Part shown: positions 3,139 through 62,246 of the stretch, piece by piece | Numbering within the stretch: position 1 is the first letter of the stretch | How the letters are laid out: each line of letters begins with the position of its first letter | IMG/VR virus record: IMGVR_UViG_3300031784_000013 | Coordinates: 32,001-96,000 of that record | DNA from: a virus | Direction: 5' to 3' (one strand) | DNA: 64,000 bases | Notes under the pieces: model-generated | Databases searched by the model: none | The model's input: the letters and a program-made list of their open reading frames with translations, nothing else | What the model was told of the DNA's origin: nothing | Made by a program: the position numbers and the translations under genes

Positions 3139-3594
3139 TTATGGGCATCCAATATTTAATGTTTGCAGAATAGAACCATTGTATGTACCTGGAGCAATGC
3201 AACTTGTTATACTAGCTCCTGTGTATGTGTAATACTTAACTGGTGAACCAGGAAGAACATACTGCTGACCTATACCAAGAGTTGGTACAGTCAATGTAAA
3301 TGCGTTGTCCTCTGGATCACATCCTGCAAGTTGATAATATGTAGGACATGTACTAGTGGTGGTTGTAGTTGTTGGTAAAACAAGTATTATATCTATATAA
3401 TTGCTACATAAACCAGTTGACTTTACACGAACAATTGTAGTTCCTACAGGGGCTAAGGTTGTTGTGTAGCCAGCTAGAAGAGCTGCTTTAGACACACCTG
3501 TTACAAAAGCTGATGTGTAACCATCTACATCAGAGAAGAGGTTAAATGGGCCAGTATCTGTCCCAGCTGTGGTTAATGTTATTGTTATAGTCAT
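3139..3594 (-). CDS. Small virion accessory protein: anchor domain + Thr linker + Cys-containing C-terminal module
   Basis: 151-aa ORF. N-terminal 70 aa closely match the N-terminus of 11611..13788. PTTTTTTSTC linker. Confidence 0.7.
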   Translation of the reverse strand: MTITITLTTAGTDTGPFNLFSDVDGYTSAFVTGVSKAALLAGYTTTLAPVGTTIVRVKSTGLCSNYIDIILVLPTTTTTTSTCPTYYQLAGCDPEDNAFTLTVPTLGIGQQYVLPGSPVKYYTYTGASITSCIAPGTYNGSILQTLNIGCP

Positions 3595-3631: not shown

Positions 3632-6600
3632 TTAAGATGGCCCCACACAACATTCACTAATACTTCCTGTCACAGGTACTACATCAGCGTAGTCAAATGT
3701 TGGACTTGCAACTTCACCACAAGAAGGTAGCGGTGCACATTGTATATCACTTGAAGCAATCAATATACTACCAGTAGTTCCTGAAGTTATAAATGTAGTT
3801 TGTGTTGAAGCATCGCTATAATGTGCGGTTACATTTATATCAAATGGAGCTGGTATTTCATTTCCACCACAACTATCAAAGAAGATTATTATTGTATCAG
3901 TTGTACTTGCAAAAAAGCCAGGACAATCAAAACATTCACCAGGAGTAGTTTGGATACTTACTATCTCATAACAATATGGACTAGCTGTTGTAGTGGTAGT
4001 GGTAGTGGTAGGTGTTGCAGTTGTAGTTGTTGTGGTGGTAGTAGTAGGTTCTAAAGTAGTAGTTGTTGTTGTAGTTGGCTCTAATGTAGTAGTTGTAGTT
4101 GTGGTGGTTGAAGTTGTAGTTGGAGGTGGGCTGCAATCACACTGTGGATCAAGACAGCCAATACCTTGTGCAAGAAATCCACAATCATCGCTTATCACTT
4201 CAGTAACACATGCTGTAAAGCATAGCCCCTCATCTTGTGATGGGATGTTAAGAGTGATTGTTACACCATTCTCATCTTTATACACAAACGTACATCCACC
4301 AAACGGAGCAGAATCTAACTTATAACACTCATCTGTAAGAGGTGCAGGTGTAGTGGTAGTAGTTGTTGTTGGAGACGGTGTTGTAGTTGTGGTCGTTGTA
4401 GAACTTGTACTAGTGGTAGTAGTAGTTGGTTCTGCTGTCGTTGTTGTTGTAGTTGTAGAACTTGTTGTACTAGTAGTTGTACTTGTTGTACTAGTGGTAG
4501 TTGAAGTTGTACTAGTAGTGGTTGATGTAGAAGTGGAAGTTGTTGTAGATGTTGTAGATGTTGTAAAAGGTCCTACATAACCATCTCCTGCCAAATCACA
4601 ATCTAAAGATACAATTTGTCCAATTCCTGCCAAAGAACAATCTATTTCCTGAACTGTAGCTGTAAAGTTACATTGTAAAGGAGCAACTGTTGTTGTAGTG
4701 GTTGATGTAGAAGACGTTGATGTAGATGTTGTAGTGGTAGTTGGTGGATTTGGAACCAATACACCCACTAGAAAATCAAAGTCTTCACAGCAATTGTTTT
4801 GTCCTGAATAGAAGAAGTTGTTCTCAGCAACATACCAGTTTGGAATGTAACTGTGGAAACTTATCCAACTCTTTGTATTCATGTTGAAAGATAACGTCCA
4901 TGATACGTTACAGAAATAACGTTCATCACTTACACTAACGTTTTGTCTAATAGTTAGACCATTAACAACATTGTTAATGTAGAACTCTTGCTCCACTGGA
5001 TCATATAAAATGTTTTTTGACTTTGGTGCATAGTCCAACTTAGTAATAATCACTCTGTCATATACAGCATCATACACGCCATGAAGTCCTATTCCTTTGA
5101 AATGGTTATCAATATTCACTTCTGGGAAGTTATTATTAATCATGAATGGTAAATGCTCAACAAAGAACCTGTTCATTCCTGATCCAAATGCAGATAAGTC
5201 AACTGCTTCTGTTCCCTGGATCAAGAACACTTGTCCCCGTTTAGCATCAACAGTAACTTGACCTTGAGGAATTTTTAACAACATCTTGTGCTGACTTCCC
5301 ACATATCCAAGATCAGTTTCTGCAAAGTCAATAGGAGGTGCTCCTCTAAACAATAATGGATTACCTACATAAGCAGCTTGAGGGTTACTTGTGTCAATAG
5401 TCAAGAGATTATTGTACATCAATGTCTTATTCTCAAATCTTGCAAGAATAGCTCTGTTCTGAATACCATCAAGAGCCACTAGATTTCCATAGTTCTGTGG
5501 GAAATCAAAATAAGAAATAGCTCTGTAGATAAGCCAGTTGTTCACTCTGTTGTCAGCATCGATGTTTTGAGCATCAGAATAGATAGCTCTGAACGGATAG
5601 TTTGTAAAGCACAATCTACTTTCCCAATCAACAGGTAAGTGAGTAAATGTATTCTCTCTGTTTTGCTTTGAGAATGTTGTATTGTAGTAGTAGGTGTTGT
5701 CTTGTGCAATAGGTACAAAGCTCTGCTGCAACCAGTCATCTGGAATGTCTGTACTAACATGTGGCCAGAAGTCTCCCTCTCTATTGTTAAATGCTTGTCT
5801 TAAATCAGTATTGTAAGAACTTTCGCAATAGAAGTTTGGAATACCATAGGCAAACAAGTAAAAGTAACCATCATAGTATGTAATGGTTGAACTTGGTGTC
5901 ACTTCACCAGAACCACCTGGAGGGAATGTTGTACTAGTAGTAGTGGTGGTTGATGTAGATACAATCACATCTGTTCCCACTTCATTAGGACAATCAAAAT
6001 TATGTGCCTTGTAAGAAATGATGTTTGCCATCACTCCTTGTCCAGGAATGCTGTAGTTCTCGAGAATAGATCTCGCAGAGTGCCAATATCTAGGATAGGC
6101 AACGTTACCTATTTCATCATAGAAGATGTCACTATCATCAGGAGCATTCACTCTATTGTCAATAAAGAATGGAAGCTTGGTCTTGAATGCGAATCTGCTA
6201 ATGAATGTATCACCACCAAACACCGTGGTGGATGGATTAGGTGAGTTAATTATGTATTGATAACCTGTATCAATTGTTTCGTATGAATAGATTTGACCCC
6301 ACTGATTAACAACTGAGTTCTTCAGTGATGCATAATATGAAACAACCTGTATAGGCTCTTCTTTAGCTGGTGTTGAACAGTTTCCTATTTCTGAAATAGT
6401 GAATCTTGATCTATCCGTAACAATACTTGTAATTCCAGAAAGCATGTTAGGACTCTTATCAGGATAAGGAAGAGCTGTAGTGTCTATGTTTGTTTTCATA
6501 AACACAGAGCTTTCTCTGTTCCAGTTGTTGATAGGAAGATCATCTCCTACAGCCTGAACGCCAGGAATCAAATACCTAGCTATGTCAAGCTCTCTTTGCT

Positions 6601-9262
6601 TGATTCCTTGATTGTCAGGAACACCTACACCATAGTTGTAATCAGCAATAGAGTTGAATGAGTATGCATAGTTTCTTCTGGTAATACCATTAATGTAAAT
6701 AGTCAAATAAGACTGATACGCAGTGAACATAGCTGTTGCACTAAATGGTGTAGTAATACCACCAAGTCTTGCAGAACTATCAAGAGCAGCCTTCTGAGCA
6801 GCCTCAGAGAGCAACTTATATTTAGCATTGTCTGCCACCTGAACAAAGTGAGCTTTACCAGTACCAAACATTACACTTTCAAGCTTGAGAATGTCTGCTA
6901 AGAATGGTTGACCAAACGATGTCTCTGGAGAGTTGAAGATTTGTCTGTATCTATTCTCGTCAGTGAAGCCATCTAGTAGCGTTGTGCCACCACAATCTAC
7001 ATCAGATCTCACTTGTCTAATTCTTCTTATTTGAGCATCTGCACAACTCGCTGTACATATAACAGCTGTATCAGCAACAACCTCAACAGTATCTTCTGTA
7101 TCACCAACACTCAATGTTGTTGGTCCTAAGAATCTATCATCATAAGATGCTGTAAACGTTGCTCCTGCTGGAGAATCAAGTGTGTAAACATCATAGTTAG
7201 CATATCCCACTTCTCCTCCGCCAATAATAATTGTTGGTCTACCAACAGCACAAATCACATCTTCTTGTATAGAAGTGTAATCCTTGTAGACAATTTTGTT
7301 GTTCTCGCAAGAATAATACTGCACTCGAGCTAATGGATTACCAGTAATTGGATCTGTACCAAGGCTAGTGATGTAAACATCAAATGGTTCACACTCGCTC
7401 TGGTAAGCATTGTTTGTTGTTGTAAGGAATGGATCTTCGTTGAGATCGTTATATGGATAGTTAGGAAAATAGAATGATTGTTCTTCTCTTGTGTACTCAC
7501 CAACGTTTCTAAGTATTCCCTTAGCTACAATAGACTTATTAACACTTCTATCACCACGCACAATCTTAAATCCTACAACGTCAGATTTCTGATCATCTGT
7601 AAGATTTGATACTTGTATGAGATTTAAGATTTGAGAAGGATCAATCTTTACACCAATAGGAAAAACAGCATCGTTCCCCATCACCATCGCTTGTGGTGCA
7701 GAAAAGACTTTACTCTCGTATATTGGAGAGATGTTTACATCTGGGAACTTGTGATGTCTGATTTTTTGTCCTGCAAGATTTCCCCACACGTCTGTGTTGC
7801 ATGGATATTCTTCAACAGATTCCCAATAGGCAAATTCGCCAAATTGATATGGTCCTTTATAAGCATCATTTGTTGAATATTCTGGAGAGAATCCTGTGAT
7901 AGTAGCTGTGTTATAAATCTTCCAATACGGTGAATCATGTGTGATTGGGTCAGGGTTACCTATAAAGTCTGGATCTGTATCAGGAATTCTTGGAAGCAAT
8001 TGTTCATATCCTGTAATTGCTTTTCCTGGAATATGGAATCCATCTGTTTGTTTTCCGTTCTTCAATAGAAAAACAATCTCAAAAGCATACACTTCATCAC
8101 GAAGATATCCTCTAAGATTCGTTGCGTTTATTTCGTCTGCATAGTTCTCTGTTGCAGGAATTCTCCAAGATTCCCATAGCAACGTAATCTGGTTAGCAAC
8201 TTGTTGATAGTTGATTCTATCAATAGATGTCAACTGATCCCATACAAGAACATCCTGTACAGCAGTTAAGTCTTGAGCAATTTCATAGAATGGAAACTTC
8301 TCAAATATGTCCTGTATTACAAGATTGATTGTTGACTGCCCTGTGTAGGTGATTTGTATATTACCATTGTCAATGAAATATGTACCAACAAGATCAACAG
8401 ATGTTACACCGTTGATAGTTTTGATTACAGCAAGGTTAAAATACTCAAACTGTCCAGATACATCAAGGTTGTCAACATTGACAACAATTGATTTTCCTAC
8501 AGGATAATTGAAGTTGGGTGTTGTGATAAACTCATCAGCAATAGGTGTAGGATTAGTAACTGAGTAGTAGGAAGTAAATGGATTACCAGCTGGATCAGAA
8601 TACTGAATAGCAAACTGATATGTACCTGCAATAAGATTACCTCCACTGATAACATCAATGATTGTTAGTTCAGGAATGTTAAAATTGGGCTGTAGCTTGA
8701 GTTGATTACAATCAAGATCATCTGTATAGATAGGGCTACAAAGAGCACTACCAGATCTAAGGATCTTAGGAATGTCATCAATGTCTAGATATCTTCTAGG
8801 ATTATAGCCATCTGTCCAATAAATCTCTGTATTACAATTGGTAATTCTGTGGACAACTTTGTGAATAGGGTAATCAGTATTAAAGTTTAGGCAAGGAGCA
8901 TTGACAAGAACACGATACTCGCAATCATTATTGTCCATATACCCTATCTGACTGTCTCCTGTAGATGGATTAGTAATGAAGAATATATGTTTGTTTTTCT
9001 CTACAATAAAGTGTTCCCCTATAAGCACAAAACCTTCAGGGAAACGAATACATAATTCGTTACCAGGTTCGTTCTGATAGTTTACAGAATTTGAATCAAA
9101 GTTTTCAACAGCAGCGTTAAGAGCATAAGTTAGTCTACCTTTCTGAACTTGATTTAGAGATTGATCTAAATTCAGTCCCGTAGTGGCATTATTATACTCC
9201 TGTTTAACATTACCTTGATCACCATTGATGATCTGTTTTATTTTGTCTAACTCGTCTGCCAT
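3632..9262 (-). CDS. Tail stabilisation (P22 gp10-like)/muzzle protein with Thr-rich C-terminal extension
   Basis: 1876 aa, directly after the tail tubular gene. Motifs GLNLD..YALNA, YWTDGYNPRRY, GYLRDEVYAFEIVF..FHIPG, IRHHKFP, FGGDTFI and SWISFHSYIP resemble crAss-like Tstab/muzzle proteins. Confidence 0.75.
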   Translation of the reverse strand: MADELDKIKQIINGDQGNVKQEYNNATTGLNLDQSLNQVQKGRLTYALNAAVENFDSNSVNYQNEPGNELCIRFPEGFVLIGEHFIVEKNKHIFFITNPSTGDSQIGYMDNNDCEYRVLVNAPCLNFNTDYPIHKVVHRITNCNTEIYWTDGYNPRRYLDIDDIPKILRSGSALCSPIYTDDLDCNQLKLQPNFNIPELTIIDVISGGNLIAGTYQFAIQYSDPAGNPFTSYYSVTNPTPIADEFITTPNFNYPVGKSIVVNVDNLDVSGQFEYFNLAVIKTINGVTSVDLVGTYFIDNGNIQITYTGQSTINLVIQDIFEKFPFYEIAQDLTAVQDVLVWDQLTSIDRINYQQVANQITLLWESWRIPATENYADEINATNLRGYLRDEVYAFEIVFLLKNGKQTDGFHIPGKAITGYEQLLPRIPDTDPDFIGNPDPITHDSPYWKIYNTATITGFSPEYSTNDAYKGPYQFGEFAYWESVEEYPCNTDVWGNLAGQKIRHHKFPDVNISPIYESKVFSAPQAMVMGNDAVFPIGVKIDPSQILNLIQVSNLTDDQKSDVVGFKIVRGDRSVNKSIVAKGILRNVGEYTREEQSFYFPNYPYNDLNEDPFLTTTNNAYQSECEPFDVYITSLGTDPITGNPLARVQYYSCENNKIVYKDYTSIQEDVICAVGRPTIIIGGGEVGYANYDVYTLDSPAGATFTASYDDRFLGPTTLSVGDTEDTVEVVADTAVICTASCADAQIRRIRQVRSDVDCGGTTLLDGFTDENRYRQIFNSPETSFGQPFLADILKLESVMFGTGKAHFVQVADNAKYKLLSEAAQKAALDSSARLGGITTPFSATAMFTAYQSYLTIYINGITRRNYAYSFNSIADYNYGVGVPDNQGIKQRELDIARYLIPGVQAVGDDLPINNWNRESSVFMKTNIDTTALPYPDKSPNMLSGITSIVTDRSRFTISEIGNCSTPAKEEPIQVVSYYASLKNSVVNQWGQIYSYETIDTGYQYIINSPNPSTTVFGGDTFISRFAFKTKLPFFIDNRVNAPDDSDIFYDEIGNVAYPRYWHSARSILENYSIPGQGVMANIISYKAHNFDCPNEVGTDVIVSTSTTTTTSTTFPPGGSGEVTPSSTITYYDGYFYLFAYGIPNFYCESSYNTDLRQAFNNREGDFWPHVSTDIPDDWLQQSFVPIAQDNTYYYNTTFSKQNRENTFTHLPVDWESRLCFTNYPFRAIYSDAQNIDADNRVNNWLIYRAISYFDFPQNYGNLVALDGIQNRAILARFENKTLMYNNLLTIDTSNPQAAYVGNPLLFRGAPPIDFAETDLGYVGSQHKMLLKIPQGQVTVDAKRGQVFLIQGTEAVDLSAFGSGMNRFFVEHLPFMINNNFPEVNIDNHFKGIGLHGVYDAVYDRVIITKLDYAPKSKNILYDPVEQEFYINNVVNGLTIRQNVSVSDERYFCNVSWTLSFNMNTKSWISFHSYIPNWYVAENNFFYSGQNNCCEDFDFLVGVLVPNPPTTTTTSTSTSSTSTTTTTVAPLQCNFTATVQEIDCSLAGIGQIVSLDCDLAGDGYVGPFTTSTTSTTTSTSTSTTTSTTSTTTSTTSTTTSTTSSTTTTTTTAEPTTTTTSTSSTTTTTTTPSPTTTTTTTPAPLTDECYKLDSAPFGGCTFVYKDENGVTITLNIPSQDEGLCFTACVTEVISDDCGFLAQGIGCLDPQCDCSPPPTTTSTTTTTTTTLEPTTTTTTTLEPTTTTTTTTTATPTTTTTTTTASPYCYEIVSIQTTPGECFDCPGFFASTTDTIIIFFDSCGGNEIPAPFDINVTAHYSDASTQTTFITSGTTGSILIASSDIQCAPLPSCGEVASPTFDYADVVPVTGSISECCVGPS

Positions 9263-11610: not shown

Positions 11611-13788
11611 CTATATGCCTCCATCTGTTACAGTCCAGTTGTTTGGAGCTCCAGTTAATACGTTTCTACCAGCTTGACCTGCCAACGTGTATTTAGCTGT
11701 TCCAAAACTTATATTCAAATTAGGTTGTAGTGTAAGTAAACTCCACCCATTGTAAATAGCATCTAAGTTAGTAGCTGAAAACGTTAAATTGGTCTTACTT
11801 CCCATGAAATTAGAGAAATTTCCAACGTTACTCACGTTCCAATTTCCTATGTTCTGGTTAAATGCTGTAGCATTAAAGAACATATATTGCATATCTGTAA
11901 CATTACCTACATCCCAAATTCCAATATTTTGGTTAAATGCAAATGCACTTTGGAACATAAAGAACATACTAATCACATTACTTACATCCCATCCGCTTAT
12001 GTCTTGATTAAAAGATAAAGCTGATTTGAACATATTCCCCATCTGTGTCACATTGCTTACATTCCAACCACTTATATCTTGGTTAAAAACTAAAGCACCG
12101 TTAAACATGCCCCCCATATTTGTTACACTAATTACATTCCAGCCACCAATATTTTGGTTAAACACTACGGCATCATGAAACATGTTTGCCATATTTGTAA
12201 CACTGCTTACGGTCCAACTTCCAATGTTTTGATTAAATACTGAAGCACCATAAAACATAAGTGACATATCAGTTACTCCTGAAACATCCCAAGAAGTTAT
12301 ATTTCCATTAAATGCTGTATTTTGGTAAAACATACTTGACATGTTCGTAACGCTTGATACGTCCCAACTATTCAAACTTTGATTGAAACTATTTGCTGCA
12401 TTAAACATACCAGCCATGTTTGTAACATTGGAAACATTCCAAGAATTAATATTCTGATTAAATGCGGATGCCGCTGCAAACATATTATTCATATTTGTAA
12501 CACTACCAACATTCCAACCAGTTATGTTTCCATCAAAAGAAACGGCAGAATTAAACATAGCTTGCATGTTTGTTACACCGCTTACGTTCCAACTATTTAA
12601 GTTTTGGTTAAATGAGTTAGCAGTATTAAACATAGAAATCATATTAGTAACATTACTCACGTCCCAACCACCAATATTTTGATTAAACGCAATTGCAGTA
12701 CTGAACATAGATTGCATAGTTGTTACACTACTTACATCCCAACCACTTATATTTTGATTAAAGACATAAGCAGCATTAAACATAAAAGACATATTAGTAA
12801 CACTACTTACATCCCAATTACTTATGTCTCCATTAAAGGAAGTTGCAGATGTAAACATTTGCTGCATAGTTGTTACACTACTTACATCCCAGGTGTTTAG
12901 ATTTTGATTGAATGCAAGTGCAGTAAGAAACATAAGTCTCATGTTTGTAACATTACTAACATCCCAATTTCCTATGGGTTGGTTAAAAGCTATTGCAAGC
13001 CCAAACATTTGCTCCATGTTAGTAATAGTACTAGTATTCCATGAATTAACATTATTAATGGTAGTTAAACTAGTACAATCTGCAAACATTCTGGTTAAAA
13101 TAGTCATTGCTGACAAATTTGGGGTGTCTGTAACAGCTGATAGATCTAAATTAGCACATCCACTAAATATACCATTAGAGTAGTTACCTAAGTTTACATT
13201 ACCAAAAGATGTAATGCTTAATAACTTTTTGCGATCTCCTCCATTCTCAAAAGCAAACCCAGAACATGTTCCAGTAATAGTAATTGTATAATCTCCAGAA
13301 GAGACGTATGTGTGAGTAGTTTCAGCTTGATTCCAAACAGTGATAACATTATTGTTTCCATCTCCCCAATTTACAGTAAAGTTATAAACACCACCATTTT
13401 TTAATGGAAGCTTTACTTGGTCTGAGTTAGTTGATCCAACATAAGTATTTGTAGTTCTCCAAGTTGAAATAAAAGCAGTTGGCGATGCTGTAGTACTAGT
13501 AGTGGTAGTGGTGCTGCTGGTAGTACTAGTTGTAGTGGTGCTAGTCGTGCTAGTGCTAGTAGTAGTAGTTGTAGCACCTACCACTACATCAATGTAGTTT
13601 GTACATACTCCTGTACTAATTATTCTCACTGTTGTTGTACCAGCTGGAGCAATTACAGAATATCCTGCTAACAGGGTTGCTTTACTTACTCCTGTATCAA
13701 ATGCAGATACAAATCCATCAACGTTTGAATAAAGGTTGAATGGTCCTGCGTCTACTCCAGCTGATGTTAGTGTTATGAATACGTACAT
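11611..13788 (-). CDS. Putative adhesin/receptor-binding protein: anchor domain + Thr linker + PKD-like domain + DUF285/BspA-like repeats
   Basis: FTVNWGDG...THTY..SGDYTITITG is PKD-like, followed by ~16-17 tandem 25-aa repeats W(D/N)VSxVTxMxxMFxxAxxFNQ. Confidence 0.85.
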   Translation of the reverse strand: MYVFITLTSAGVDAGPFNLYSNVDGFVSAFDTGVSKATLLAGYSVIAPAGTTTVRIISTGVCTNYIDVVVGATTTTTSTSTTSTTTTSTTSSTTTTTSTTASPTAFISTWRTTNTYVGSTNSDQVKLPLKNGGVYNFTVNWGDGNNNVITVWNQAETTHTYVSSGDYTITITGTCSGFAFENGGDRKKLLSITSFGNVNLGNYSNGIFSGCANLDLSAVTDTPNLSAMTILTRMFADCTSLTTINNVNSWNTSTITNMEQMFGLAIAFNQPIGNWDVSNVTNMRLMFLTALAFNQNLNTWDVSSVTTMQQMFTSATSFNGDISNWDVSSVTNMSFMFNAAYVFNQNISGWDVSSVTTMQSMFSTAIAFNQNIGGWDVSNVTNMISMFNTANSFNQNLNSWNVSGVTNMQAMFNSAVSFDGNITGWNVGSVTNMNNMFAAASAFNQNINSWNVSNVTNMAGMFNAANSFNQSLNSWDVSSVTNMSSMFYQNTAFNGNITSWDVSGVTDMSLMFYGASVFNQNIGSWTVSSVTNMANMFHDAVVFNQNIGGWNVISVTNMGGMFNGALVFNQDISGWNVSNVTQMGNMFKSALSFNQDISGWDVSNVISMFFMFQSAFAFNQNIGIWDVGNVTDMQYMFFNATAFNQNIGNWNVSNVGNFSNFMGSKTNLTFSATNLDAIYNGWSLLTLQPNLNISFGTAKYTLAGQAGRNVLTGAPNNWTVTDGGI
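11800..13060 (-). repeat. 75-nt (25-aa) tandem repeat array encoding DUF285-type solenoid
   Basis: Repeated WDVSNVTNM..MF..A..FNQNI units with 75-bp periodicity. Confidence 0.85.
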
Positions 13789-13810: not shown

Positions 13811-14317
13811 TTAACAAGAAGTTGCTGCACTTAGCACTCCACCACTTGATACTGTCCACTTAGTACTTAAGTTGGTTATGTAAATATATCCACTGTAAGT
13901 AGATGTTAGTCCACTATTAGTGTACAATACAACGCCATTAGCTAATACAGGAGCAGATGTATACAATGGAGATAACAATACAGCTGATGTACATGGGCTA
14001 GCAAGATTTACCAATCCACCTAAATACCAAGCATAGTAAGGAGCTCCTGTGGTAGTAGATGTACTGGTACTACTTGTTGATGTACTAGTTGTTGATGGAG
14101 GAGGTGGCGTAGGAGTGATAATCTCTTTGATTGCCAAAATCTGTGCATCAATTATTTGAAGAATTGTTGTCAAGTCTTCACAACTCTGTATTCCTGTTCC
14201 TGGAAGATTAGGACCAACGTATTTAACTTGCGATGTTGATAGCAAATCATTTCCAGGATCACTACATCCACAAGGATCAAGTGATCCGCATCCTGAGCAT
14301 TTATTATTTTGTACCAT
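13811..14317 (-). CDS. Cys-rich virion accessory/fibre-associated protein with Pro/Thr/Ser linker
   Basis: Likely start MVQNNKCSGCG. The YVGPNLPGTGI..DLTTILQ segment resembles YTGYGIPALGISNGDTL in the adjacent fibre gene. PTPPPPSTTSTSTSSTSTSTTT linker. Confidence 0.6.
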   Translation of the reverse strand: MVQNNKCSGCGSLDPCGCSDPGNDLLSTSQVKYVGPNLPGTGIQSCEDLTTILQIIDAQILAIKEIITPTPPPPSTTSTSTSSTSTSTTTGAPYYAWYLGGLVNLASPCTSAVLLSPLYTSAPVLANGVVLYTNSGLTSTYSGYIYITNLSTKWTVSSGGVLSAATSC

Positions 14318-14321
14318 GATA

Positions 14322-15464
14322 TTATGGGATGTACATGATGTAATAAGCACCAATTGTAGGCTGGATGTTGATATGGCTCAATCCACCACCTGTTGCATTA
14401 ACAACTACACTAGTTGTAACATTCACTGTAGCATTATTAGTTGGTCCCCTGTCAGCACTTCCTGATATACTTTTTAATCTATATGAAAATCTATCACCAG
14501 AAAGACCAGATACATCATAATCTGTAACAAGAGGAGATGTAGATGTTAGATCCCCAATATTTGTAGAACCATCTTTAGCAATAAAGTGTGAGTGTGGGTC
14601 AGCAGTGGATGTAGCTGTTGCTGTGTGAGTGTGAGAAGGGATTTGATTAGCTGTAAGAGTGACATTGTTCAAACCTTGTACACTATTCAATGAGTAACTT
14701 GGGTTACCTGCTGTTGAAGGATTCACAATAGAACTCATTGGAATACTTCCAGCCATGCTTCCATCTGTAGTTCCTACAGCAACACGTCCTCTTTTATCTG
14801 GTGTTCCATTACTTCCGTTACACAAAAATACGTCAATGAATTGACCAGATCCTGCTCCTGTAACATCAAAGCCTGTAAGAGGTCCATAATATTCATACGC
14901 AACGTATGGTACCATGTTATTCTTGTACAAGTTGGATGGTGCAATGCTGTTCAAATAGGCTTGAATAAGCGCATTCAAATCAGCAAGCTTAACATAATTG
15001 GTGTCAACTTCAATCTCAAATGCTGCTAAGTCAGCTGCTGTTGAGCAGAGCTTGTTGATAGCTGCTTGAAGAATAGCATGTGTATCAGACGATGCTGTTA
15101 CACCTGTTAAACATCCAATTGTGTAATCAGCGTTAAGGGTGGCGAGCGTTGCATCGATTGCTGTAACATTGGTTTTTAAAGCGCAAATTGATTGCAACAA
15201 TGCTGAGATAACATCATTAAGTGTAATGTCACCAGACACTGGGAGAAACCCACTCACCAATGGGCACAGATCAGCTGGATCAATGACAGGAATAATGCCA
15301 TTACCAGTAGACAGATCTAAGATGAAATTTGCAATTTGTAATTCAACAAAAGCAAGTGTGTCCCCATTGGAAATACCAAGGGCAGGAATGCCGTATCCTG
15401 TATATCTTACGCACTGATCAGATATGATTTCAGTGCATCCGTTAAAGCAATTAGAACAGCTCAT
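14322..15464 (-). CDS. Tail fibre with C-terminal tail-collar/short-fibre domain
   Basis: FLCNGSNGTPDKRGRVAVG...VTLTANQIPSHTH...GGGLSHINIQP is the collar/HxH metal-binding fibre signature. Confidence 0.75.
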   Translation of the reverse strand: MSCSNCFNGCTEIISDQCVRYTGYGIPALGISNGDTLAFVELQIANFILDLSTGNGIIPVIDPADLCPLVSGFLPVSGDITLNDVISALLQSICALKTNVTAIDATLATLNADYTIGCLTGVTASSDTHAILQAAINKLCSTAADLAAFEIEVDTNYVKLADLNALIQAYLNSIAPSNLYKNNMVPYVAYEYYGPLTGFDVTGAGSGQFIDVFLCNGSNGTPDKRGRVAVGTTDGSMAGSIPMSSIVNPSTAGNPSYSLNSVQGLNNVTLTANQIPSHTHTATATSTADPHSHFIAKDGSTNIGDLTSTSPLVTDYDVSGLSGDRFSYRLKSISGSADRGPTNNATVNVTTSVVVNATGGGLSHINIQPTIGAYYIMYIP

Positions 15465-16524: not shown

Positions 16525-17703
16525 TTAAGGAATCAAAGTGCTAGTAGTGGTAGTAGTTGTTGGAGGTGTAGAAGTTGTAGTGGTAGTAGTAGTGATACAA
16601 ACATTGTTGTCAACTACAGTACCAAGAGCAGCTTCAAGAACAGCTTCAACAGCAGTAGAAATACCAGCGTTACCTGGAGTGGCAGCGTTAGGAACAGCAA
16701 CAATCACCATGCTATCCTCATAGATATAATCACCCCACTGATAAGCAGAACGGTCGTACTGATTGAACTTGATGTAATAGGTATCATAGATGGTACCAGT
16801 GGTTACATAAGTTTCAAAGTTCTCGTTGTAACCATTCATTCTGTACAAGTGCTTCAAGTAACCTGCCTGATAGCTGTAGAAGTTTTTCTCAAGTTGAGCA
16901 ATTTCTTCAGCAGTACCAGTTGGGTAAGAAGCTCTCTGTACAACAACAGGATCAGCAACAATATCACAATTGTCAGCAACAATGAAGTCAGCAGTGGTAG
17001 CAGGACCTTGGTATACGAAAGTACGGAAGTACATTCTGTCATATTCCCAAGGGAATGCAGCAATATCGCAAGGCTGACCATACTTGGTAAGAGGCTTACC
17101 AGAGATTCGAAGGATAGTTCCACCTACGTTCTCGAAAGTATAGAAATCAGACAATGTGATGTTGTCAGGGTTGTTACCAGGAGCAGCAAGGTTCAACTGA
17201 TAGATGAACTGGTTGATCAACGCATTAGTGTTGACATCAGCGCAAGGATCAGCACCGCAATCGCAGCAAGGAGCTTGTACAGTTACAGAACGGGTGAAAC
17301 CGTTGAAGTACAAGGTGTCAAGATAACTAGAATGACCTCTTAGAGTAAGGGTCACAATTTCTCCACACTGTACGTTCCAATCAGTTACATCAGTGATTTG
17401 GACAGCAGGAGTACCGCAACCTGATACTTTGTACCATTCAGTTACGTTAGATGAGCAACCAGAGCCAGAAGGGCAACCCTTGATTTTATCAGAACGCTTA
17501 GAGCCTTGTAGGTAGGTGTTTTGTCTACCTTGAGCTACATAGAAGTATGGAGCAGCAGCAATGTTAGCAGCTGTAGCCACACTGTAATCGTTTCTGAAGA
17601 AACCAACTTGACCAGCGGTTAGATCCTGTGTAGAACCAGTGCTAGGGAGCGAAGTTTGCCCTACTGGAACTACAAAAAGGGTGGTTAACGAGAAATCAGC
17701 CAT
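16525..17703 (-). CDS. Abundant virion structural protein (auxiliary capsid-type) with C-terminal poly-Thr tail
   Basis: 392 aa in the conserved block after MCP; followed by a terminator; ends CITTTTTTTSTPPTTTTTTSTLIP. Confidence 0.6.
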   Translation of the reverse strand: MADFSLTTLFVVPVGQTSLPSTGSTQDLTAGQVGFFRNDYSVATAANIAAAPYFYVAQGRQNTYLQGSKRSDKIKGCPSGSGCSSNVTEWYKVSGCGTPAVQITDVTDWNVQCGEIVTLTLRGHSSYLDTLYFNGFTRSVTVQAPCCDCGADPCADVNTNALINQFIYQLNLAAPGNNPDNITLSDFYTFENVGGTILRISGKPLTKYGQPCDIAAFPWEYDRMYFRTFVYQGPATTADFIVADNCDIVADPVVVQRASYPTGTAEEIAQLEKNFYSYQAGYLKHLYRMNGYNENFETYVTTGTIYDTYYIKFNQYDRSAYQWGDYIYEDSMVIVAVPNAATPGNAGISTAVEAVLEAALGTVVDNNVCITTTTTTTSTPPTTTTTTSTLIP

Positions 17704-35299: not shown

Positions 35300-35320
35300 C
35301 TAAAATTGTGTATTTTACTA

Positions 35321-55772: not shown

Positions 55773-56079
55773 TCAATTAGAAGCCCTAGTGATTGAATGG
55801 GCAGACAACAAAGGCATTCTTAAGAATGGGACACCTCTTGCACAATCTAAGAAGACAATGGAAGAGTGTCAAGAGCTGATAGATGCCATAGAAGGAGACT
55901 ATCTTGGTGGAGAAACTAGAGATGAAATAGCAGATGCTCTTGGTGACATCCTCGTCACTATTATCATCCAGGCTAAGATGCAGAACATGTCTCTACTAGA
56001 ATGTCTAGAGGGTGCTTACAATGTAATCACTAAGCGTACAGGAAAGATGGTGAATGGTCAATTTGTAAAAGATGCCTAA
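55759..56079 (+). CDS. MazG-like NTP pyrophosphohydrolase
   Basis: KTMEECQEL..EIADALGDILVT..CLEGAYNVITKRTGKMVNGQFVK. Confidence 0.8.
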   Translation: MMDYNQLEALVIEWADNKGILKNGTPLAQSKKTMEECQELIDAIEGDYLGGETRDEIADALGDILVTIIIQAKMQNMSLLECLEGAYNVITKRTGKMVNGQFVKDA

Positions 56080-56470
56080 GCAAAAGTGTAAGACATGCGA
56101 TAAACCCTGTGAAGGAGAGTATTGCTTTAGACACAAGCCAAGAAAACCAATGCTAGCAAGAATAACAACTAACTATTCAAACAAGCTCATCATAGAGGAG
56201 AAATCCTCTATGCGTGAGATGTTTCTTAGGATTTGGAAGCAAAGACTACACAAGTCTGAGATTAGTGGTGAGAGACTAGGTACAGAACCTCTGTCAATAT
56301 TCTTTCACCATATCCTTCCAAAGGAGAAGTATAAGGACGCAATGTTAGATGAAGAGAATATCATTCTCCTAACACTGGACGAGCACACCAACGTTGAGAA
56401 CGACATCTATCGTTATGAAGAAGTGAACAAGAGACGTGAATATCTAAAAACAAAATACAATATACCATGA
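56072..56470 (+). CDS. HNH-like (NinG-type) nuclease
   Basis: SEISG..FHHILPK..Y...ENIILL..DEH. Confidence 0.6.
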   Translation: MPKQKCKTCDKPCEGEYCFRHKPRKPMLARITTNYSNKLIIEEKSSMREMFLRIWKQRLHKSEISGERLGTEPLSIFFHHILPKEKYKDAMLDEENIILLTLDEHTNVENDIYRYEEVNKRREYLKTKYNIP

Positions 56471-56998
56471 AACAATTATATCAATATGCAGCCATATATC
56501 ACAAATATGACTTCAACGAAGAAGGAATTAAAGTTTACACAGACTCTGAATTACTAATTGAGCCAAAATATGTGCTTGCCAATGATGAGAAAGAAGTTAT
56601 CTTTAAGGCAACAAAGCACGTAGGTGAATACTACGCACAGTCTCCAGACAGTGTAGAGATTATAATTAAAAAATTCTAAAACCAATTTTACAAACATGAA
56701 CCAATTCTTTTACACACGGAAAGAACCAATTCAAGGAACTGATCCCCTTGAATTCAAAGAGTACCTAGACAGTTTCAACATTGAGAAAGTCATTAGAACT
56801 ATTATTGTGGAGAATGAAAATCGTTTAGTGTTGCTAGATGACATCCACGAACGTTCTATAGAAGTGCCTGATGTAAATCCAAAGAATGGACAAACCAGAG
56901 GATTTAAACGTGAGCGCAACACCTACCAAACTGAAATCTATTTGACACCAGCAGATTCAGAGAGGTTTGTTAAACTACTCAACATTGTTGACCTATGA
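56467..56998 (+). CDS. Two hypothetical ORFs (56467-56679, 56696-56998)
   Basis: Short ORFs; the second is ATGA-coupled to the glycosyltransferase gene. Confidence 0.6.
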
Positions 56999-57753
56999 AT
57001 TACCCAATGATCTCTTGTAAGATGATCACTTATGGAAGAGTGGAGTTTCTCGAAGAGTCTCTCCACTCTTTTCTCATTCAGGACTATCCTGAAAAGGAAC
57101 TAGTGATTGTCAATGACTATCCTCTACAGAAGCTTGTATTTGATCATTCTCAAGTGAGGATTTACAATCTTGATGAGACATTCAAAACTATAGGGGATAA
57201 AGAAAACTTTGCTACAGGATTGTGCAAAGGAGAAATCATTTGTCAATGGGACGATGATGATGTTGCTTTACCGTGGCACTTAAAGAATGTTGCAGAACAA
57301 TTTACAGATGATGTAAATATTCTTCACTGGGCCACAGGTGTATATTACAACAACTCAGCTATTACAAATGTTGGATGGATAGGTAACTCTGGTATTGTGT
57401 TCAGGAAGTCTGCATGGCAGGCTATTGGTGGTCATCCTGTAGAAAACGCTGGATACGATATGACATTCATAAATGCTCTTGCTCATTATGGTGGTAGAAA
57501 GTTTGCTGAGATGCCCAAAAAAGATGCTAGCTGGTTCTATATGTGGGGAGGAAGAGGTTATCACATGAGTGGTATGGGTACAGACACTAGTGATAGAGCC
57601 AATGTAATTGAGAGACATTCAAATCATGTAGAAATTCTCAGAACAAGAGGACTGATTCCTACAGGGGATGTAACTTTGAATCCTCATTGGAAACTTGATT
57701 ACCAAAAACAACTTGAGGATCATGTTACAGAAAATAAAAGCAGTAATAGTTAA
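56995..57753 (+). CDS. GT-A fold (GT2-like) glycosyltransferase
   Basis: ISCKMITYGR..LEESLHSFLIQDYPEKELVIVND, IGDKEN, QWDDDD (DxD), FRKSAW..IGG. Confidence 0.85.
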   Translation: MNYPMISCKMITYGRVEFLEESLHSFLIQDYPEKELVIVNDYPLQKLVFDHSQVRIYNLDETFKTIGDKENFATGLCKGEIICQWDDDDVALPWHLKNVAEQFTDDVNILHWATGVYYNNSAITNVGWIGNSGIVFRKSAWQAIGGHPVENAGYDMTFINALAHYGGRKFAEMPKKDASWFYMWGGRGYHMSGMGTDTSDRANVIERHSNHVEILRTRGLIPTGDVTLNPHWKLDYQKQLEDHVTENKSSNS

Positions 57754-58357
57754 TCGTAATCTTGTAACAACTTTAAAGAACACCGTAGACTTTCTATCAA
57801 AAGATCCTAGGGTGGAGGTTATCATTTTTGATCAACAATCAACCTATCCTCCTCTTCTAGAATATTACAAAACACAGAACGTAATTTACAATAATTCAAA
57901 TGGTGGTCCTTATAGTGCTTGGGGACTTGCTGAATTGAACAGATACCACTACATTGTTACAGATGCAGATTGCACGTATGATGATGTGCCTGATGACTGG
58001 CTAGACAAGATGTTATATTGTTTAGACAACAGTGGGCATAACAAGGTGGGATTCTCATTAAAAATTGATGACCTTCCTGATAATGTTATTGCTAACCAGG
58101 CAAAGCAACATGAGTCTAAGTTTTGGACGAACAGTTGTCAGTTTGGCTGGGTGGCTGAGGTAGACACCACGTTTGCATTATATCGTGCAAGAACAGCATT
58201 TCAGTATCAAGCAGTGAGATTATTTGAACCATACACAATTAAACATGTCCCTTGGTATATTGAGAACAATATAACTGATGAATGGAAATACTATCTAAAA
58301 CATTCTAGTGGAATCTCAGTGTGGGGATCAAGATTAAAAACTCTTTACAATTTATAA
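57722..58357 (+). CDS. Second GT-A fold glycosyltransferase-like protein
   Basis: IVNRN..IIFDQQSTYPPLLEYY, YIVTDAD (DxD), KVGFSL, VDTTFALY, HVPWY. Confidence 0.7.
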   Translation: MLQKIKAVIVNRNLVTTLKNTVDFLSKDPRVEVIIFDQQSTYPPLLEYYKTQNVIYNNSNGGPYSAWGLAELNRYHYIVTDADCTYDDVPDDWLDKMLYCLDNSGHNKVGFSLKIDDLPDNVIANQAKQHESKFWTNSCQFGWVAEVDTTFALYRARTAFQYQAVRLFEPYTIKHVPWYIENNITDEWKYYLKHSSGISVWGSRLKTLYNL

Positions 58358-58358
58358 A

Positions 58359-58904
58359 ATGTCAGAAAGCCTTAATCAGATATATGAGAGATTGTATAAC
58401 ACTCCTTCAGATATCAATGAACACCTACCCACTTTAGCAAGCTACGCTAGTGAATGTGAGCATATCACTGAGATGGGAGTTAGATACATTGTGTCAACGT
58501 ACGCTCTTCTTATGGGTAAACCAAAGAAGATGATCTCCTATGACATACACATGTGTCACTGGGAGCCTGTAAAAGATTTAGTTAAGGAAGACACAGACTT
58601 CCACTTTGCCATTGGGAACACTCTAGAGATTGAGATTGACCCTACAGATCTATTGTTCATAGACACTCTTCACAACTATACACAACTCAAGAAAGAACTT
58701 GAGCTACATGCTAAGAAGGTGAATAAGTACATCATCTTCCATGACACAACAAGTTTTGAAACTGTTGGGGAATCTTATTCAGGAAATCCAGAGAAAGGAA
58801 TATGGCCAGCTATTGAAGAGTTCTTACAACTCAATCCTCAATGGACGTTGAAAGAAAGATTCACAAACAATAATGGATTGACAATAATTGAAAAAGCCTC
58901 CTAG
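58359..58904 (+). CDS. Class I SAM-dependent methyltransferase (Methyltransf_24-like)
   Basis: DINEHL, ITEMGVR, SYDI, DLLFIDTLH.Y, IIFHDT, NNGL. Confidence 0.8.
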   Translation: MSESLNQIYERLYNTPSDINEHLPTLASYASECEHITEMGVRYIVSTYALLMGKPKKMISYDIHMCHWEPVKDLVKEDTDFHFAIGNTLEIEIDPTDLLFIDTLHNYTQLKKELELHAKKVNKYIIFHDTTSFETVGESYSGNPEKGIWPAIEEFLQLNPQWTLKERFTNNNGLTIIEKAS

Positions 58905-58918
58905 TTGGAGGCTTTCTT
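58891..58918. terminator. Bidirectional terminator between convergent genes
   Basis: AAAAAGCCTCC-tagtt-GGAGGCTTTCTT. Confidence 0.7.
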
Positions 58919-59070
58919 CATTTTGATAGCTTTTTCTTTGACATGGGCCATTGAGCATTTCCCTGTTGTTTCTTACTCCTAACATCATTGTTACTATACT
59001 CTTTCATATAGTTAGCATTTGGTCTAGGATTGGGAACCTTTGGTGCCCTCTTTGGTTTTCCAGATTTCAT
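58918..59070 (-). CDS. 50-aa basic peptide (not in ORF track)
   Basis: MKSGKPKRAPKVPNPRPNANYMKEYSNNDVRSKKQQGNAQWPMSKKKLSK*, ATGA-coupled to the upstream gene. Confidence 0.55.
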   Translation of the reverse strand: MKSGKPKRAPKVPNPRPNANYMKEYSNNDVRSKKQQGNAQWPMSKKKLSK

Positions 59071-59864
59071 TTTCTGAATGATTTTCTTACAGCCTTAACT
59101 TTAGCTTTTGCTGACTTTACTTCGTATCGTTTCTCAGCTCTCTCAGCTTTATTTCTAATCTTCTGTGTAGCAAGACGTTCTTTTGTACGTACAGCTTGGA
59201 TTTTTCGCTGAGCACCTTCTTTCATTGTGCCATCTTTCTTCTTACCCTTCTGCATGATCTCCATGATCTTAATCTCACCCTTAGAAAACTTTCTTTTCTC
59301 TGGACCAGTTCTAAGAGTTTTGTCAAGAGGAGCAGCCACTTTTAATTCTGGCATCTTTCTTTCAGGAACTTTAATTCCCTCATCCTTCTTTCTCTTAACA
59401 GATTTCTTAGGAGTTGAAGATTTCTTAGTAGCATCTGAAACTTTGAAAGATTCTCCTCTAGTAGTCTTCATGTAATCATCATACCCATCAGACTTTTTCT
59501 TAGGTTGAGTTGGTTTAGAACTACTGGATTCTTTTAAAGGGCCTTTTAGTGGAGCAGCTGGCCTTGTATTCATATACTTTCTAATATCACTTCCTTTAGC
59601 TGGAAGTTTAGTATACTGAGTTTTAGTGCCCTCATATTTAACGGGCTCTTTAATAGCCTTATCTACAGAAGCTCTATCACCACTTCCTGTATTTGTTTCT
59701 GTTTTGCCTGAAGAATATGTCTTAGTAAACTTGGCAGGAAACATTGTTTTACCAGAAGAATATCCAGTTGTGTCATACTCAACCTTTTCTTCAACTGGAT
59801 AACTACTACTTCTCTTAGAGGCAAATCTCTTTGTTTGAGTAACCCCTCTCTGTGCCTTTTTCAT
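59067..59864 (-). CDS. Highly basic (Lys/Arg-rich) protein, putative virion core/DNA-condensing
   Basis: Likely start MKKAQRG; extreme Lys content; on the late strand. Confidence 0.65.
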   Translation of the reverse strand: MKKAQRGVTQTKRFASKRSSSYPVEEKVEYDTTGYSSGKTMFPAKFTKTYSSGKTETNTGSGDRASVDKAIKEPVKYEGTKTQYTKLPAKGSDIRKYMNTRPAAPLKGPLKESSSSKPTQPKKKSDGYDDYMKTTRGESFKVSDATKKSSTPKKSVKRKKDEGIKVPERKMPELKVAAPLDKTLRTGPEKRKFSKGEIKIMEIMQKGKKKDGTMKEGAQRKIQAVRTKERLATQKIRNKAERAEKRYEVKSAKAKVKAVRKSFRK

Positions 59865-59865
59865 A

Positions 59866-60414
59866 TTAGCAACCCATTTTACATTTACCAACAGCCTTCT
59901 TTACAGATGCACCTTTCTTAGCAACTGTTTTCTTAGCAGTCATTTTTCCACCACTTTTGAAAGTTGGCCTCTTCATTTTACCACTTTCTAAGTCTTTTGC
60001 CATTCTACTTACAATATCTACTCTAGATTCACCTGGGCCACTTTGCAATTTACCTTGTCTAATATTTTTTCCACTCTTATCTGAGACACTGTAGTTAAAT
60101 GTTTCATTACGCATTGTAGCTGGTGATTTGTAACCAACTGTATCAATGGACATCTTTCTATCGTCACCAAGTGCAATTTCCATTGGTCTTAGGCTTTTAG
60201 CTTGTTTAGTGACTTGAGGAAGAGTCATTGCTTTCAATCCATTCTGAGCTTTTTTAATTGGTTTTTTAGCTGCAACCTTAGCACCATTCTTAGCTTTATT
60301 CTTAGCAGCTGAAATAATATCAGCTCTTGTGATTGCTGGGTTGTTGTCATATCCAGCTTTCACTGATTTCATGCCTAGGCTTGTACCAGCTTTAGCTTTT
60401 GCAATTTTTTTCAT
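59866..60414 (-). CDS. Lys/Ala-rich histone-H1-like basic protein
   Basis: Likely start MKKIAKAKAG; repeated KAKxG, AQNG and KSGG motifs. Confidence 0.65.
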   Translation of the reverse strand: MKKIAKAKAGTSLGMKSVKAGYDNNPAITRADIISAAKNKAKNGAKVAAKKPIKKAQNGLKAMTLPQVTKQAKSLRPMEIALGDDRKMSIDTVGYKSPATMRNETFNYSVSDKSGKNIRQGKLQSGPGESRVDIVSRMAKDLESGKMKRPTFKSGGKMTAKKTVAKKGASVKKAVGKCKMGC

Positions 60415-61595: not shown

Positions 61596-62246
61596 ATGAA
61601 CATACTACAAGTTGATTTCCCTTCTAGCCAATACATAGCAGAGGAAACTCCAAAGAAACAAATCTATCTTCACCACACAGCAGGAAGTCCTAATGGTGTA
61701 GGAACATTTGGATGGTGGGCATCTAACACTGAGAGAGTAGCCACATGTGTATCCATCTCAGGTATTGGTAAAGGCTGTATTGATGGACAGATTGTTCAGG
61801 GATTTAGCTCTAAGTTTTGGGCATATCACCTAGGACTACAGAAGAGTACATTCAGTAGTCGTAAGATTCCTTATCAGCAACTAGATAAGATCAGCATAGG
61901 TATTGAGATCTGCAACTGGGGCAATCTTCGTGAGAACAATGGTAAGTTTTACAACTATGTTGGTAAGGAGATGGACAAGGGAATCATCAAACTTGACAAA
62001 CCATACAAGGGTTTTCAATACTTTCATGATTACACGGATGCTCAAATAGAATCTGTAAAACAGTTGTTGTTGCTTTGGAAGAAAAAATACAACATCCCAT
62101 TAGATTACTGTGAAGACATCTGGGATATCACACCTAGAGCATTGAGGGGAGAAGCAGGCGTGTTTACACACAACTCTGTACGTAAAGACAAGATTGACAT
62201 CTATCCTCATCCTAAGATGATTGAGATGTTGAAGAGTCTATCTTGA
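61596..62246 (+). CDS. N-acetylmuramoyl-L-alanine amidase (Amidase_2-like endolysin)
   Basis: IYLHHTAG, SIGIEICNWG, YTDAQI, FTHNSVRKDKIDIYP. Confidence 0.85.
   Translation: MNILQVDFPSSQYIAEETPKKQIYLHHTAGSPNGVGTFGWWASNTERVATCVSISGIGKGCIDGQIVQGFSSKFWAYHLGLQKSTFSSRKIPYQQLDKISIGIEICNWGNLRENNGKFYNYVGKEMDKGIIKLDKPYKGFQYFHDYTDAQIESVKQLLLLWKKKYNIPLDYCEDIWDITPRALRGEAGVFTHNSVRKDKIDIYPHPKMIEMLKSLS

Follow-up and report, generated by a model that had tools for sequence, protein, structure and literature searches.

A glycosyltransferase and methyltransferase cassette in a crAss-like phage with poly-threonine tracts on its particle proteins: candidate enzymes for the extension and capping of virion glycans

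To our knowledge, mycobacteriophages are the only phages whose particles have been shown to be glycosylated by phage enzymes, a modification that affects antibody recognition. In Che8, Corndog, and Myrna, the virions are glycosylated by phage-encoded transferases (Freeman et al. 2023, Cell Host Microbe 31:1216, as summarized in PMC12363180). In the Chlorovirus PBCV-1, A064R joins two transferase domains to a methyltransferase domain, by which the terminal rhamnose of the capsid glycan is methylated; A064R and A061L build and methyl-cap the outer part of this glycan, and changes in these enzymes give antigenic variants (PMC9614988). Here, we describe a cassette of two glycosyltransferase genes (GT1 and ORF2) and an S-adenosylmethionine (SAM)-dependent methyltransferase gene at positions 56995-58904 of a 64,000-nt stretch of viral DNA, termed the window, which corresponds to bases 32001-96000 of one viral contig (IMGVR_UViG_3300031784_000013; 111,142 bp, rated 96% complete). 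The phage, which is uncultured, is classed as crAss-like from the Pfam matches to crAss_MUZ at 3632-9262 and Crass_capsid at 19557-21110, with a P22-type portal and a large terminase also present. As the three coupled sugar-modifying genes are accompanied by threonine (Thr)-only stretches on five proteins of the particle module, the virion is probably sugar-coated.

The locus shares several features with the systems described above. As in the mycobacteriophages, cytoplasmic transferases of the phage are proposed to glycosylate its own particle proteins, and one of the putative acceptors is the C-terminal tail of a head-module protein. The two features of the Che8-type system, namely cytoplasmic glycosyltransferases encoded by the phage and serine (Ser)/Thr-rich segments on particle proteins, were both found, the latter as eight tracts that are sequence features only. 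On the other hand, the mycobacteriophage system was shown by experiment whereas the present one is known from sequence, and the host phylum and the phage group differ. The putative acceptors are many in this phage, mostly long Thr-only linkers in muzzle or fibre-like proteins, and the genome carries two islands with methyltransferase, sulfotransferase, and heptose genes. The cassette resembles A064R (with A061L) in the order of transferase, transferase, and SAM methyltransferase and in the soluble, cytoplasmic nature of the enzymes. Nevertheless, A064R combines its three domains in one polypeptide, belongs to a eukaryotic giant virus, and acts on the N-linked glycans of the major capsid protein, while the cassette consists of three genes with a presumed O-linkage to Thr; the likeness is one of organization, not of sequence comparison.

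We tentatively propose, with a confidence that falls a little short of even, that the cassette extends and methyl-caps virion O-glycans started by other phage enzymes on the poly-Thr tracts. The acceptor, the order of the steps, the donor sugars, and the existence of the glycan are what we infer. The O-glycans would be started on the tracts by initiators encoded outside the window, either a 338-amino-acid (aa) transferase or, in this strain, a TibC-type heptosyltransferase that would be supplied by genes fitting the ADP-heptose pathway. GT1 and ORF2, as soluble cytoplasmic enzymes, would then add sugars to the existing sugar, and the O-methyltransferase would cap the product of the transferases. 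Exchange of the cassette would give the coat different outer sugars on unchanged acceptors.

GT1 (56995..57753, plus strand; 252 aa) is a soluble family-2 (GT-A) glycosyltransferase, and its ATG overlaps by 4 nt the stop codon of a conserved 100-aa open reading frame (ORF) termed orf100 (56696..56998, plus strand). GT1 matched Pfam Glycos_transf_2 (PF00535) with an E value of 1.6e-9 and 38.3 bits against a cut-off of 23.3, and its translation contains an acidic motif of the DXD type (DDDD), i.e., four aspartates at approximately residues 86-89. PF00535 was found in all of the 120 GT1 homologues listed, out of 857 in total. Besides this family, GT1 gave weak NCBIfam matches to HpsN, WcaA, and PglI, and two weak matches, both in Acinetobacter phages, in the tblastn search against the phages in GenBank.

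The second gene, ORF2 (57722..58357, plus strand; 211 aa), overlaps the end of GT1; its probable start is the ATG at 57722, where its homologues also start. ORF2 itself matched nothing in Pfam (no family at E <= 0.1), PHROG, or NCBIfam, albeit some of its 1162 homologues carry PF00535. The aspartates of a DxD motif (D81 and D83) were invariant in 18 aligned sequences, down to 36% identity. The predicted structure (predicted local distance difference test score, pLDDT, of 91.4) had 273 PDB matches at E <= 0.001 in Foldseek, and those listed were overwhelmingly GT-A proteins. The matches with E values of 1e-7 to 1e-5 included PcManGT, TarP, TarS, ArnC, DPMS, SpsA, and GalNAc-T2; SunS was also matched, and the profile comparison yielded weak matches to DPMS and GalT1. 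On the basis of the model fold, we regard ORF2 as a divergent member of the soluble GT-A glycosyltransferases at the fold level and not as a clean member of a sequence family.

The third gene (58359..58904, plus strand; 181 aa) starts 1 nt past the stop codon of ORF2, and its product is assigned by the model fold and weak family matches to the class I SAM-dependent O-methyltransferases. Its score for Pfam Methyltransf_24 stayed below the threshold (19 bits versus 26.3), and among 17 homologues, Methyltransf_24 and RMNT_CmcI (rhamnosyl O-methyltransferase/CmcI) were matched weakly in seven and four, respectively. O-methyltransferases headed the PDB matches of the predicted structure (pLDDT of 95.8), of which there were at least 500 at E <= 0.001, in agreement with a class I fold. 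The best Foldseek match was MeT1 of Mycobacterium hassiacum (PDB 6g80/6g7d; template-modelling score of 0.71 normalized to the query, with only 14% sequence identity), followed by Mg-dependent O-methyltransferases. We take MeT1 to be the sugar 1-O-methyltransferase of methylmannose polysaccharide synthesis. Considering this match together with the sugar-nucleotide enzymes and transferases that neighbour its homologues in other phages, the modelled methyltransferase probably acts on a sugar hydroxyl. As Mg-dependent catechol-type O-methyltransferases score nearly as well as MeT1, this specificity is one that we infer.

None of the three proteins has a membrane segment, the maximum hydropathy over 19 residues being below 0.9. 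A GC-rich hairpin at 58891..58917 has stems of 11 and 9 pairs with T runs behind them; it is thus terminator-like on both strands and can be read as a terminator that closes the rightward operon against a convergent gene (59067-59891, minus strand). The latter encodes a 274-aa basic protein, very rich in lysine, Ser, and Thr, with no family match. Altogether, the coupled operon of two GT-A transferases and a SAM methyltransferase, which the earlier note on this stretch had read from the letters alone, was borne out by the Pfam match of GT1, the structural models of the other two proteins, the overlaps and the 1-nt gap, and the terminator-like hairpin. Neither megablast of the cassette nor tblastn of ORF2 and the methyltransferase found a match among the phages in GenBank.

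A script run over the window found eight tracts in five virion-module proteins, all of which are encoded on the minus strand. The tracts are identical to the Thr/Ser/proline (Pro) tracts named in the earlier note, all of which were recovered, and no tract was found in any other ORF of at least 100 aa in the window. Four of the eight, rich in Thr, Ser, and Pro, belong to the muzzle (3632..9262; 1876 aa; Pfam crAss_MUZ, E value of 1.1e-31) and lie at 5909-5968, 4676-4759, 4331-4576, and 3971-4138. A DUF285-repeat protein (11611..13788; 725 aa; Pfam DUF285, E value of 4.5e-165) has a poly-Thr/Ser linker near its N-terminus (13471-13581). A Pro/Ser/Thr tract (14036-14116) and a Thr tract (3334-3384) were found in a 180-aa protein (13811..14353) and a 151-aa protein (3139..3594), respectively, neither of which matched a family in PHROG or Pfam. 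The remaining tract (16528-16602) is the poly-Thr C-terminal tail of a 392-aa head-module protein (16525..17703), which matched only PHROG 15060, a family with no assigned function. The names muzzle and DUF285 given previously to two of the carriers agree with these Pfam matches, whereas the label "auxiliary capsid" for the 392-aa protein received no confirmation from Pfam, PHROGs, PDB sequences, or GenBank phages. Extended to the whole genome, the search added a strong tract in a mini-protein encoded outside the window and a weak one in a 1595-aa protein, each at the C-terminus.

Runs of at least seven Thr codons occurred 16 times on the structural strand but not on the other strand or in the reversed-pattern control. 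All four Thr codons are used in the tracts (76 ACA, 76 ACT, 28 ACC, and 6 ACG), implying selection on the amino acid and not a DNA repeat. In relatives, the positions of the tracts are kept and their lengths vary: equivalents of the muzzle tracts are present in the three related genomes G001, G008, and G009, and the tail of the 392-aa protein is retained in a shorter form in G001 and G008. Most of the tracts are linkers after a short N-terminal module, while that of the 392-aa protein is a true C-terminal tail. As a separate observation, the first Thr of a tract is often preceded, at a distance of one to four residues, by a cysteine (CITTTT, CSPPPTTT, CAPTTTT, CYPTTTT, and ICPTTTT), although cysteine makes up only 1% of the residues in the long ORFs of the genome. 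This was seen at 3971-4138 and 16528-16602 in the window, at 98,646-98,888 of the genome, and in the relatives G001, G008, G009, L002, and L007; the cysteine could mark the end of a domain or belong to a recognition motif.

We examined the distribution of the tracts and transferases in 30 records, comprising 28 genomes of the clade (portal at least 73% identical), the Leptolyngbya phage Lbo-JY46, and one Lbo-like contig. Runs of at least seven Thr were present in 28 of the 30 records, always on one strand, and in all 21 of those at least 90% complete. PF00535 genes were detected in 11/11 and 10/10 of the clade genomes with a completeness of 90% or more. Both the Thr runs and the PF00535 genes were absent from the outgroup of 11 crAss-like or related phages (Lbo-JY46, crAss001, DAC15, cr10_1, cr116_1, cr8_1, cr118_1, Azobacteroides ProJPt-Bp1, Flavobacterium Fpv20, Cellulophaga phi17:2, and csAssE-Sib).

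These data bear on another explanation, in which the tracts are unglycosylated, flexible or extended linkers and tails, and the enzymes act on something else, e.g., a host protein or a small molecule. The position of most tracts between an N-terminal module and a distal domain and the free variation of their length among relatives are what a plain linker would predict. In contrast, the Thr-only composition with mixed codons points to selection for Thr itself, the confinement of the tracts to the structural strand and their absence from outgroup phages of the same architecture are unexpected for such a linker, and protein-type and sugar-nucleotide enzymes take up more than 12 kb of the genome. 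We regard this explanation as improbable.

The cassette occupies a mosaic island, of which orf100 is the left border; homologues of orf100 with 41-92% identity lie directly before the island in 29 of the 29 clade genomes. The slot that follows RecA, MazG (in some cases), HNH, and orf100 holds a set of transferases or methyltransferases in each of the 29 genomes, and the sets differ: GT2 with ORF2, GT2 with MT23, GT2 with MT24-like, MT24 with GT32 and GT2, GT32 with two GT2 genes, and an unclassified 209-aa protein with two methyltransferases. GT1 homologues (57-91% identity) take the first position in approximately 20 of the 29 genomes. In approximately nine, GT1 is replaced by another family-2 transferase, a family-32 DXD transferase, an O-methyltransferase, or the unclassified 209-aa protein. 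The partner gene is ORF2 (55-88% identity), an ORF2-like gene (31-34%), a Methyltransf_23 gene, a Methyltransf_24-like gene, or none. Within the clade, the methyltransferase of the window was found only in this phage and a contig 90% identical to it (L001), and it is a recent addition to the cassette. In G001, the capsid protein and RecA are 99.8% and 98% identical to those of this phage, respectively, and 72% of the genome aligned at 82% nucleotide identity. Nucleotide homology between the two genomes stops at 56987 and resumes at 59856, implying that the cassette plus the next gene is a discrete replacement unit. The convergent gene at 59067-59891 falls in this non-homologous segment. One of two HNH-type ORFs in the replication operon (56072-56470 and 51522-51923, plus strand) is found two genes upstream of the border of the island and may be linked to the exchange of cassettes.

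A second and larger glycan island was found beyond the window, at 98,646-110,378 of the genome (L285:2643-14372). Pfam identified a 721-aa fusion of GT4 and GT9, an epimerase, a PfkB kinase, a cytidylyltransferase-like protein, an APS kinase, an FkbM methyltransferase, and a sulfotransferase, among which the epimerase, the PfkB kinase, and the cytidylyltransferase-like protein apparently fit the ADP-heptose pathway. The C-terminal half of the fusion matched the protein heptosyltransferase TibC with an E value of 3.9e-48. As this is a homologue of TibC, the phage appears to carry a family of protein-glycosylating enzymes. The TibC/Aah autotransporter heptosyltransferases use ADP-heptose (PDB 4rap), and the homologue and the apparent pathway genes occur in the same genome; unlike TibC/Aah, the phage homologue is fused to a GT4 domain and lies outside the cassette. 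The island also contains a candidate transferase gene, which encodes a 338-aa protein and adjoins the poly-Thr mini-protein. The 338-aa protein gave no match in Pfam or among PDB sequences, and the Atlas search gave a weak lead to the HPAT family. It is present, at 53-91% identity, in all 21 clade genomes that are at least 90% complete as well as in G008, and in none of the 11 outgroup phages. In the four genomes fetched in full, the 338-aa gene and the mini-protein are common to all, and the distribution is patchy for the TibC homologue (found only in this phage and G001), the heptose genes, FkbM, and the sulfotransferase. Judging from these occurrences, the conserved partner of the tracts is the 338-aa putative transferase, which lies outside the cassette, and both this protein and the TibC-type heptosyltransferase appear to be better initiator candidates than the enzymes of the cassette.

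The two islands also allow us to evaluate a stronger version of the proposal, in which the cassette constitutes the whole O-glycosylation pathway, with GT1 or ORF2 attaching the first sugar to Thr, the other extending it, and the methyltransferase capping it. Soluble GT-A enzymes can glycosylate peptides, and GalNAc-T2 and SunS are indeed among the fold matches of ORF2; GT1 is nearly a core gene of the clade and co-occurs with the tracts at the level of the clade. Nevertheless, in approximately 9 of 29 genomes unrelated genes stand in place of GT1 and ORF2 while the tracts are kept, the best fold matches of ORF2 are sugar transferases acting on polyol phosphates and lipid phosphates and not peptide transferases, and another, strictly conserved transferase is encoded beside the poly-Thr mini-protein in a genome that also has a TibC homologue. 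We consider it quite improbable that the three genes suffice. The earlier note had taken the cassette as the pathway, which does not fit a replaceable set in a mosaic island with a rare methyltransferase, ORF2 kin in polysaccharide loci, and the conserved partner of the tracts elsewhere.

We also surveyed the families of ORF2 and the methyltransferase in other genomes. The bacterial homologues of ORF2 number more than 580, mostly of Bacteroidota. The one in Flavobacterium aquicola (L312) is flanked by genes for family-2 transferases, FkbM, NeuB, a CMP-sugar transferase, and a UDP-GlcNAc 2-epimerase, a repertory that marks a surface-polysaccharide locus. The Bacteroidota members share 33-40% full-length identity, the same DxD, and a DTTFALY-type motif with ORF2. 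The cellular copies are longer (approximately 250-300 aa, with N-terminal extensions) and stand among NeuB, CMP-sugar, and FkbM genes, while the phage copy is minimal and belongs to a phage island. The occurrence of the cellular relatives in polysaccharide loci suggests that the acceptor of ORF2 is a sugar, not a peptide. No relatives turned up when viral contigs were scanned with P0116, a distant homologue of ORF2. Homologues of the methyltransferase (40-68% identity) were found in approximately 80 other viral contigs, where they adjoin genes for epimerases/dehydratases (21 loci), GT17, GT2, and UDP-glucose dehydrogenase. By their sequences and genomic contexts, both families appear to be general glycan builders that point to sugar, not peptide, acceptors. 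We also considered whether the methyltransferase family predicts Thr tracts elsewhere and rejected this idea, as detailed below. Apart from this, one unrelated viral contig of 60 kb (L021/L023, IMGVR_UViG_3300032323_002596, and L022) has both a member of the methyltransferase family and inverted terminal repeats, inside which lies coding sequence with Thr runs.

The same contexts are compatible with remodelling of a host envelope glycan by the cassette (O-antigen, capsule, or lipid-linked oligosaccharide), e.g., for masking of a receptor or another change of the surface, in which case the tracts are unrelated to the cassette or are served by the other island only. HpsN, WcaA, and PglI, which GT1 matched weakly, act on undecaprenyl-linked acceptors; one of the ORF2 kin resides in a polysaccharide locus; the homologues of the methyltransferase in other phages are found with sugar-nucleotide enzymes, mostly in the absence of Thr runs. 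Peripheral polysaccharide transferases likewise have no membrane segments, and the cassette is co-transcribed with replication genes. In contrast, no flippase, polymerase, or membrane partner of the Gtr type, such as the membrane-embedded GtrA, GtrB, and GtrC of serotype conversion, was found among the neighbouring ORFs, and the island, which is universal in the clade, is found in a clade that is also universal in its Thr tracts and a core candidate peptide transferase. Moreover, conversion of the cell surface is a typical trait of temperate phages, and crAss-like phages as a rule do not form lysogens. We regard remodelling of the host surface as unlikely, albeit a contender to be taken seriously.

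Returning to the proposal that the cassette extends and caps glycans on the virion, several observations weigh against it. First, the cassette lies at the end of the replication-gene operon, outside the virion module. Second, the loci of the ORF2 relatives fit the remodelling of host glycans equally well. Third, runs of at least seven Thr were found in only 4 of 30 other viral records that have the methyltransferase family in sugar cassettes and in none of the three complete ones, and only weak tracts were found within 10 kb on either side of 79 methyltransferase loci; this scarcity implies that such cassettes often have other targets. Fourth, genomes in which GT1 and ORF2 are replaced retain the tracts, so that the tracts are independent of this particular cassette. 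Fifth, G008 (86% complete) possesses tracts but no PF00535 gene. It is the only natural genome with no recognizable transferase in the slot, and with its level of completeness it is no clean negative. The position of GT1 in G008 is taken by the 209-aa protein, which bears an acidic EHD motif (L173:8377-9006, minus strand), together with two methyltransferases. The Atlas clusters nearest to this protein include one automatically named glycosyltransferase, and a profile comparison with the ORF2 family gave no match; the protein may represent an undescribed transferase family. Finally, the co-occurrence of transferases and tracts across crAss-like genomes, which the earlier note had put forward as a check, was seen (21 of 21 versus 0 of 11) but is one contrast between a clade and the rest, with no independent association and little statistical weight. 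The idea of a glycan coat itself draws on the enzyme classes, the soluble nature of the proteins, this co-occurrence, the lack of a known route to a modified DNA base (see below), and the TibC-type homologue, and it stands in part: the coat is retained as a proposal, with the cassette as a finishing set.

The genomic neighbourhood of the cassette raises the question of DNA as the substrate. The virion genes are on the minus strand (approximately 1-27 kb of the window), and the replication genes, which encode a DnaB-like helicase, a primase, a UDG-like protein, RecA, and MazG, are on the plus strand from approximately 30 kb up to the cassette. Glycosylation of phage DNA with diverse glycans is known, and the known routes start from a thymidylate-synthase homologue or from a C5 methyltransferase plus a TET-like dioxygenase (10.1101/2023.12.21.572611; PMC13326640). 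The cassette shares with the hypermodification systems of T-even and more recently described phages the use of phage transferases that are diverse among relatives and lie near genes of DNA metabolism. The vicinity of RecA, a MazG-like pyrophosphatase, and an HNH-like ORF, as well as a diversity of cassettes that fits an arms race with restriction systems, would suit an anti-restriction role in which the cassette glycosylates and methylates the phage DNA. Those systems need a base bearing a hydroxyl group, which comes from a ThyA homologue or from a methyltransferase acting together with a dioxygenase, and no known route to a glycosylatable base was found in the 96%-complete genome. We detected in it no match to ThyA-like proteins (hydroxymethylase/5-hydroxycytosine synthase, PF00303), ThyX (PF02511), or C5 DNA methyltransferase (PF00145), and none to TET/JBP (PF12851), the last in a search run without a positive control. 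Modification of DNA by the cassette is highly improbable.

Regarding the phage itself, the closest portal in GenBank to that at 22503-25097 (minus strand) is of the Leptolyngbya (cyanobacterial) phage Lbo-JY46, with 30% identity, and all of the named Crassvirales are further from it than Lbo-JY46. No close phage was found in GenBank, indicating an abundant environmental clade with no cultured representative in that collection. IMG/VR contains hundreds of relatives with genomes of 110-117 kb, and a scan with the portal of Lbo-JY46 returned one contig only. The hosts of the clade are likely Bacteroidota, considering the relatives of ORF2 and the crAss-like group as a whole. The window also contains two separate genes for cell-wall hydrolases, a phage lysozyme and an Amidase_2 N-acetylmuramoyl-L-alanine amidase, at 35306-35875 and 61596-62246 (plus strand).

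The mosaic nature of the two islands leads us to a broader scheme of virion "glycotypes," which we put forward as possible but on balance doubtful. A conserved initiator would glycosylate poly-Thr stalks on the muzzle, fibres, and head, and the two recombining islands would supply interchangeable enzymes for extension and capping, namely transferases, O-methyltransferases, the heptose pathway, and sulfation; the cassette studied here would be one allele of the first island. If this scheme is true, phages with the same capsid would differ in their methylated or sulfated glycan coats, which would be a viral counterpart of the O-antigen serotypes of bacteria, with selection by host surface recognition, proteases, or grazers. 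The three-gene cassette alone does not warrant annotation as a complete pathway. If glycosylation of the virion is true, the phenomenon would be extended to crAss-like phages, with mucin-like, Thr-only acceptors and finishing enzymes that vary among strains as additions to it, and it would offer a model for how close phages may differ in their surfaces while their structural proteins are unchanged.

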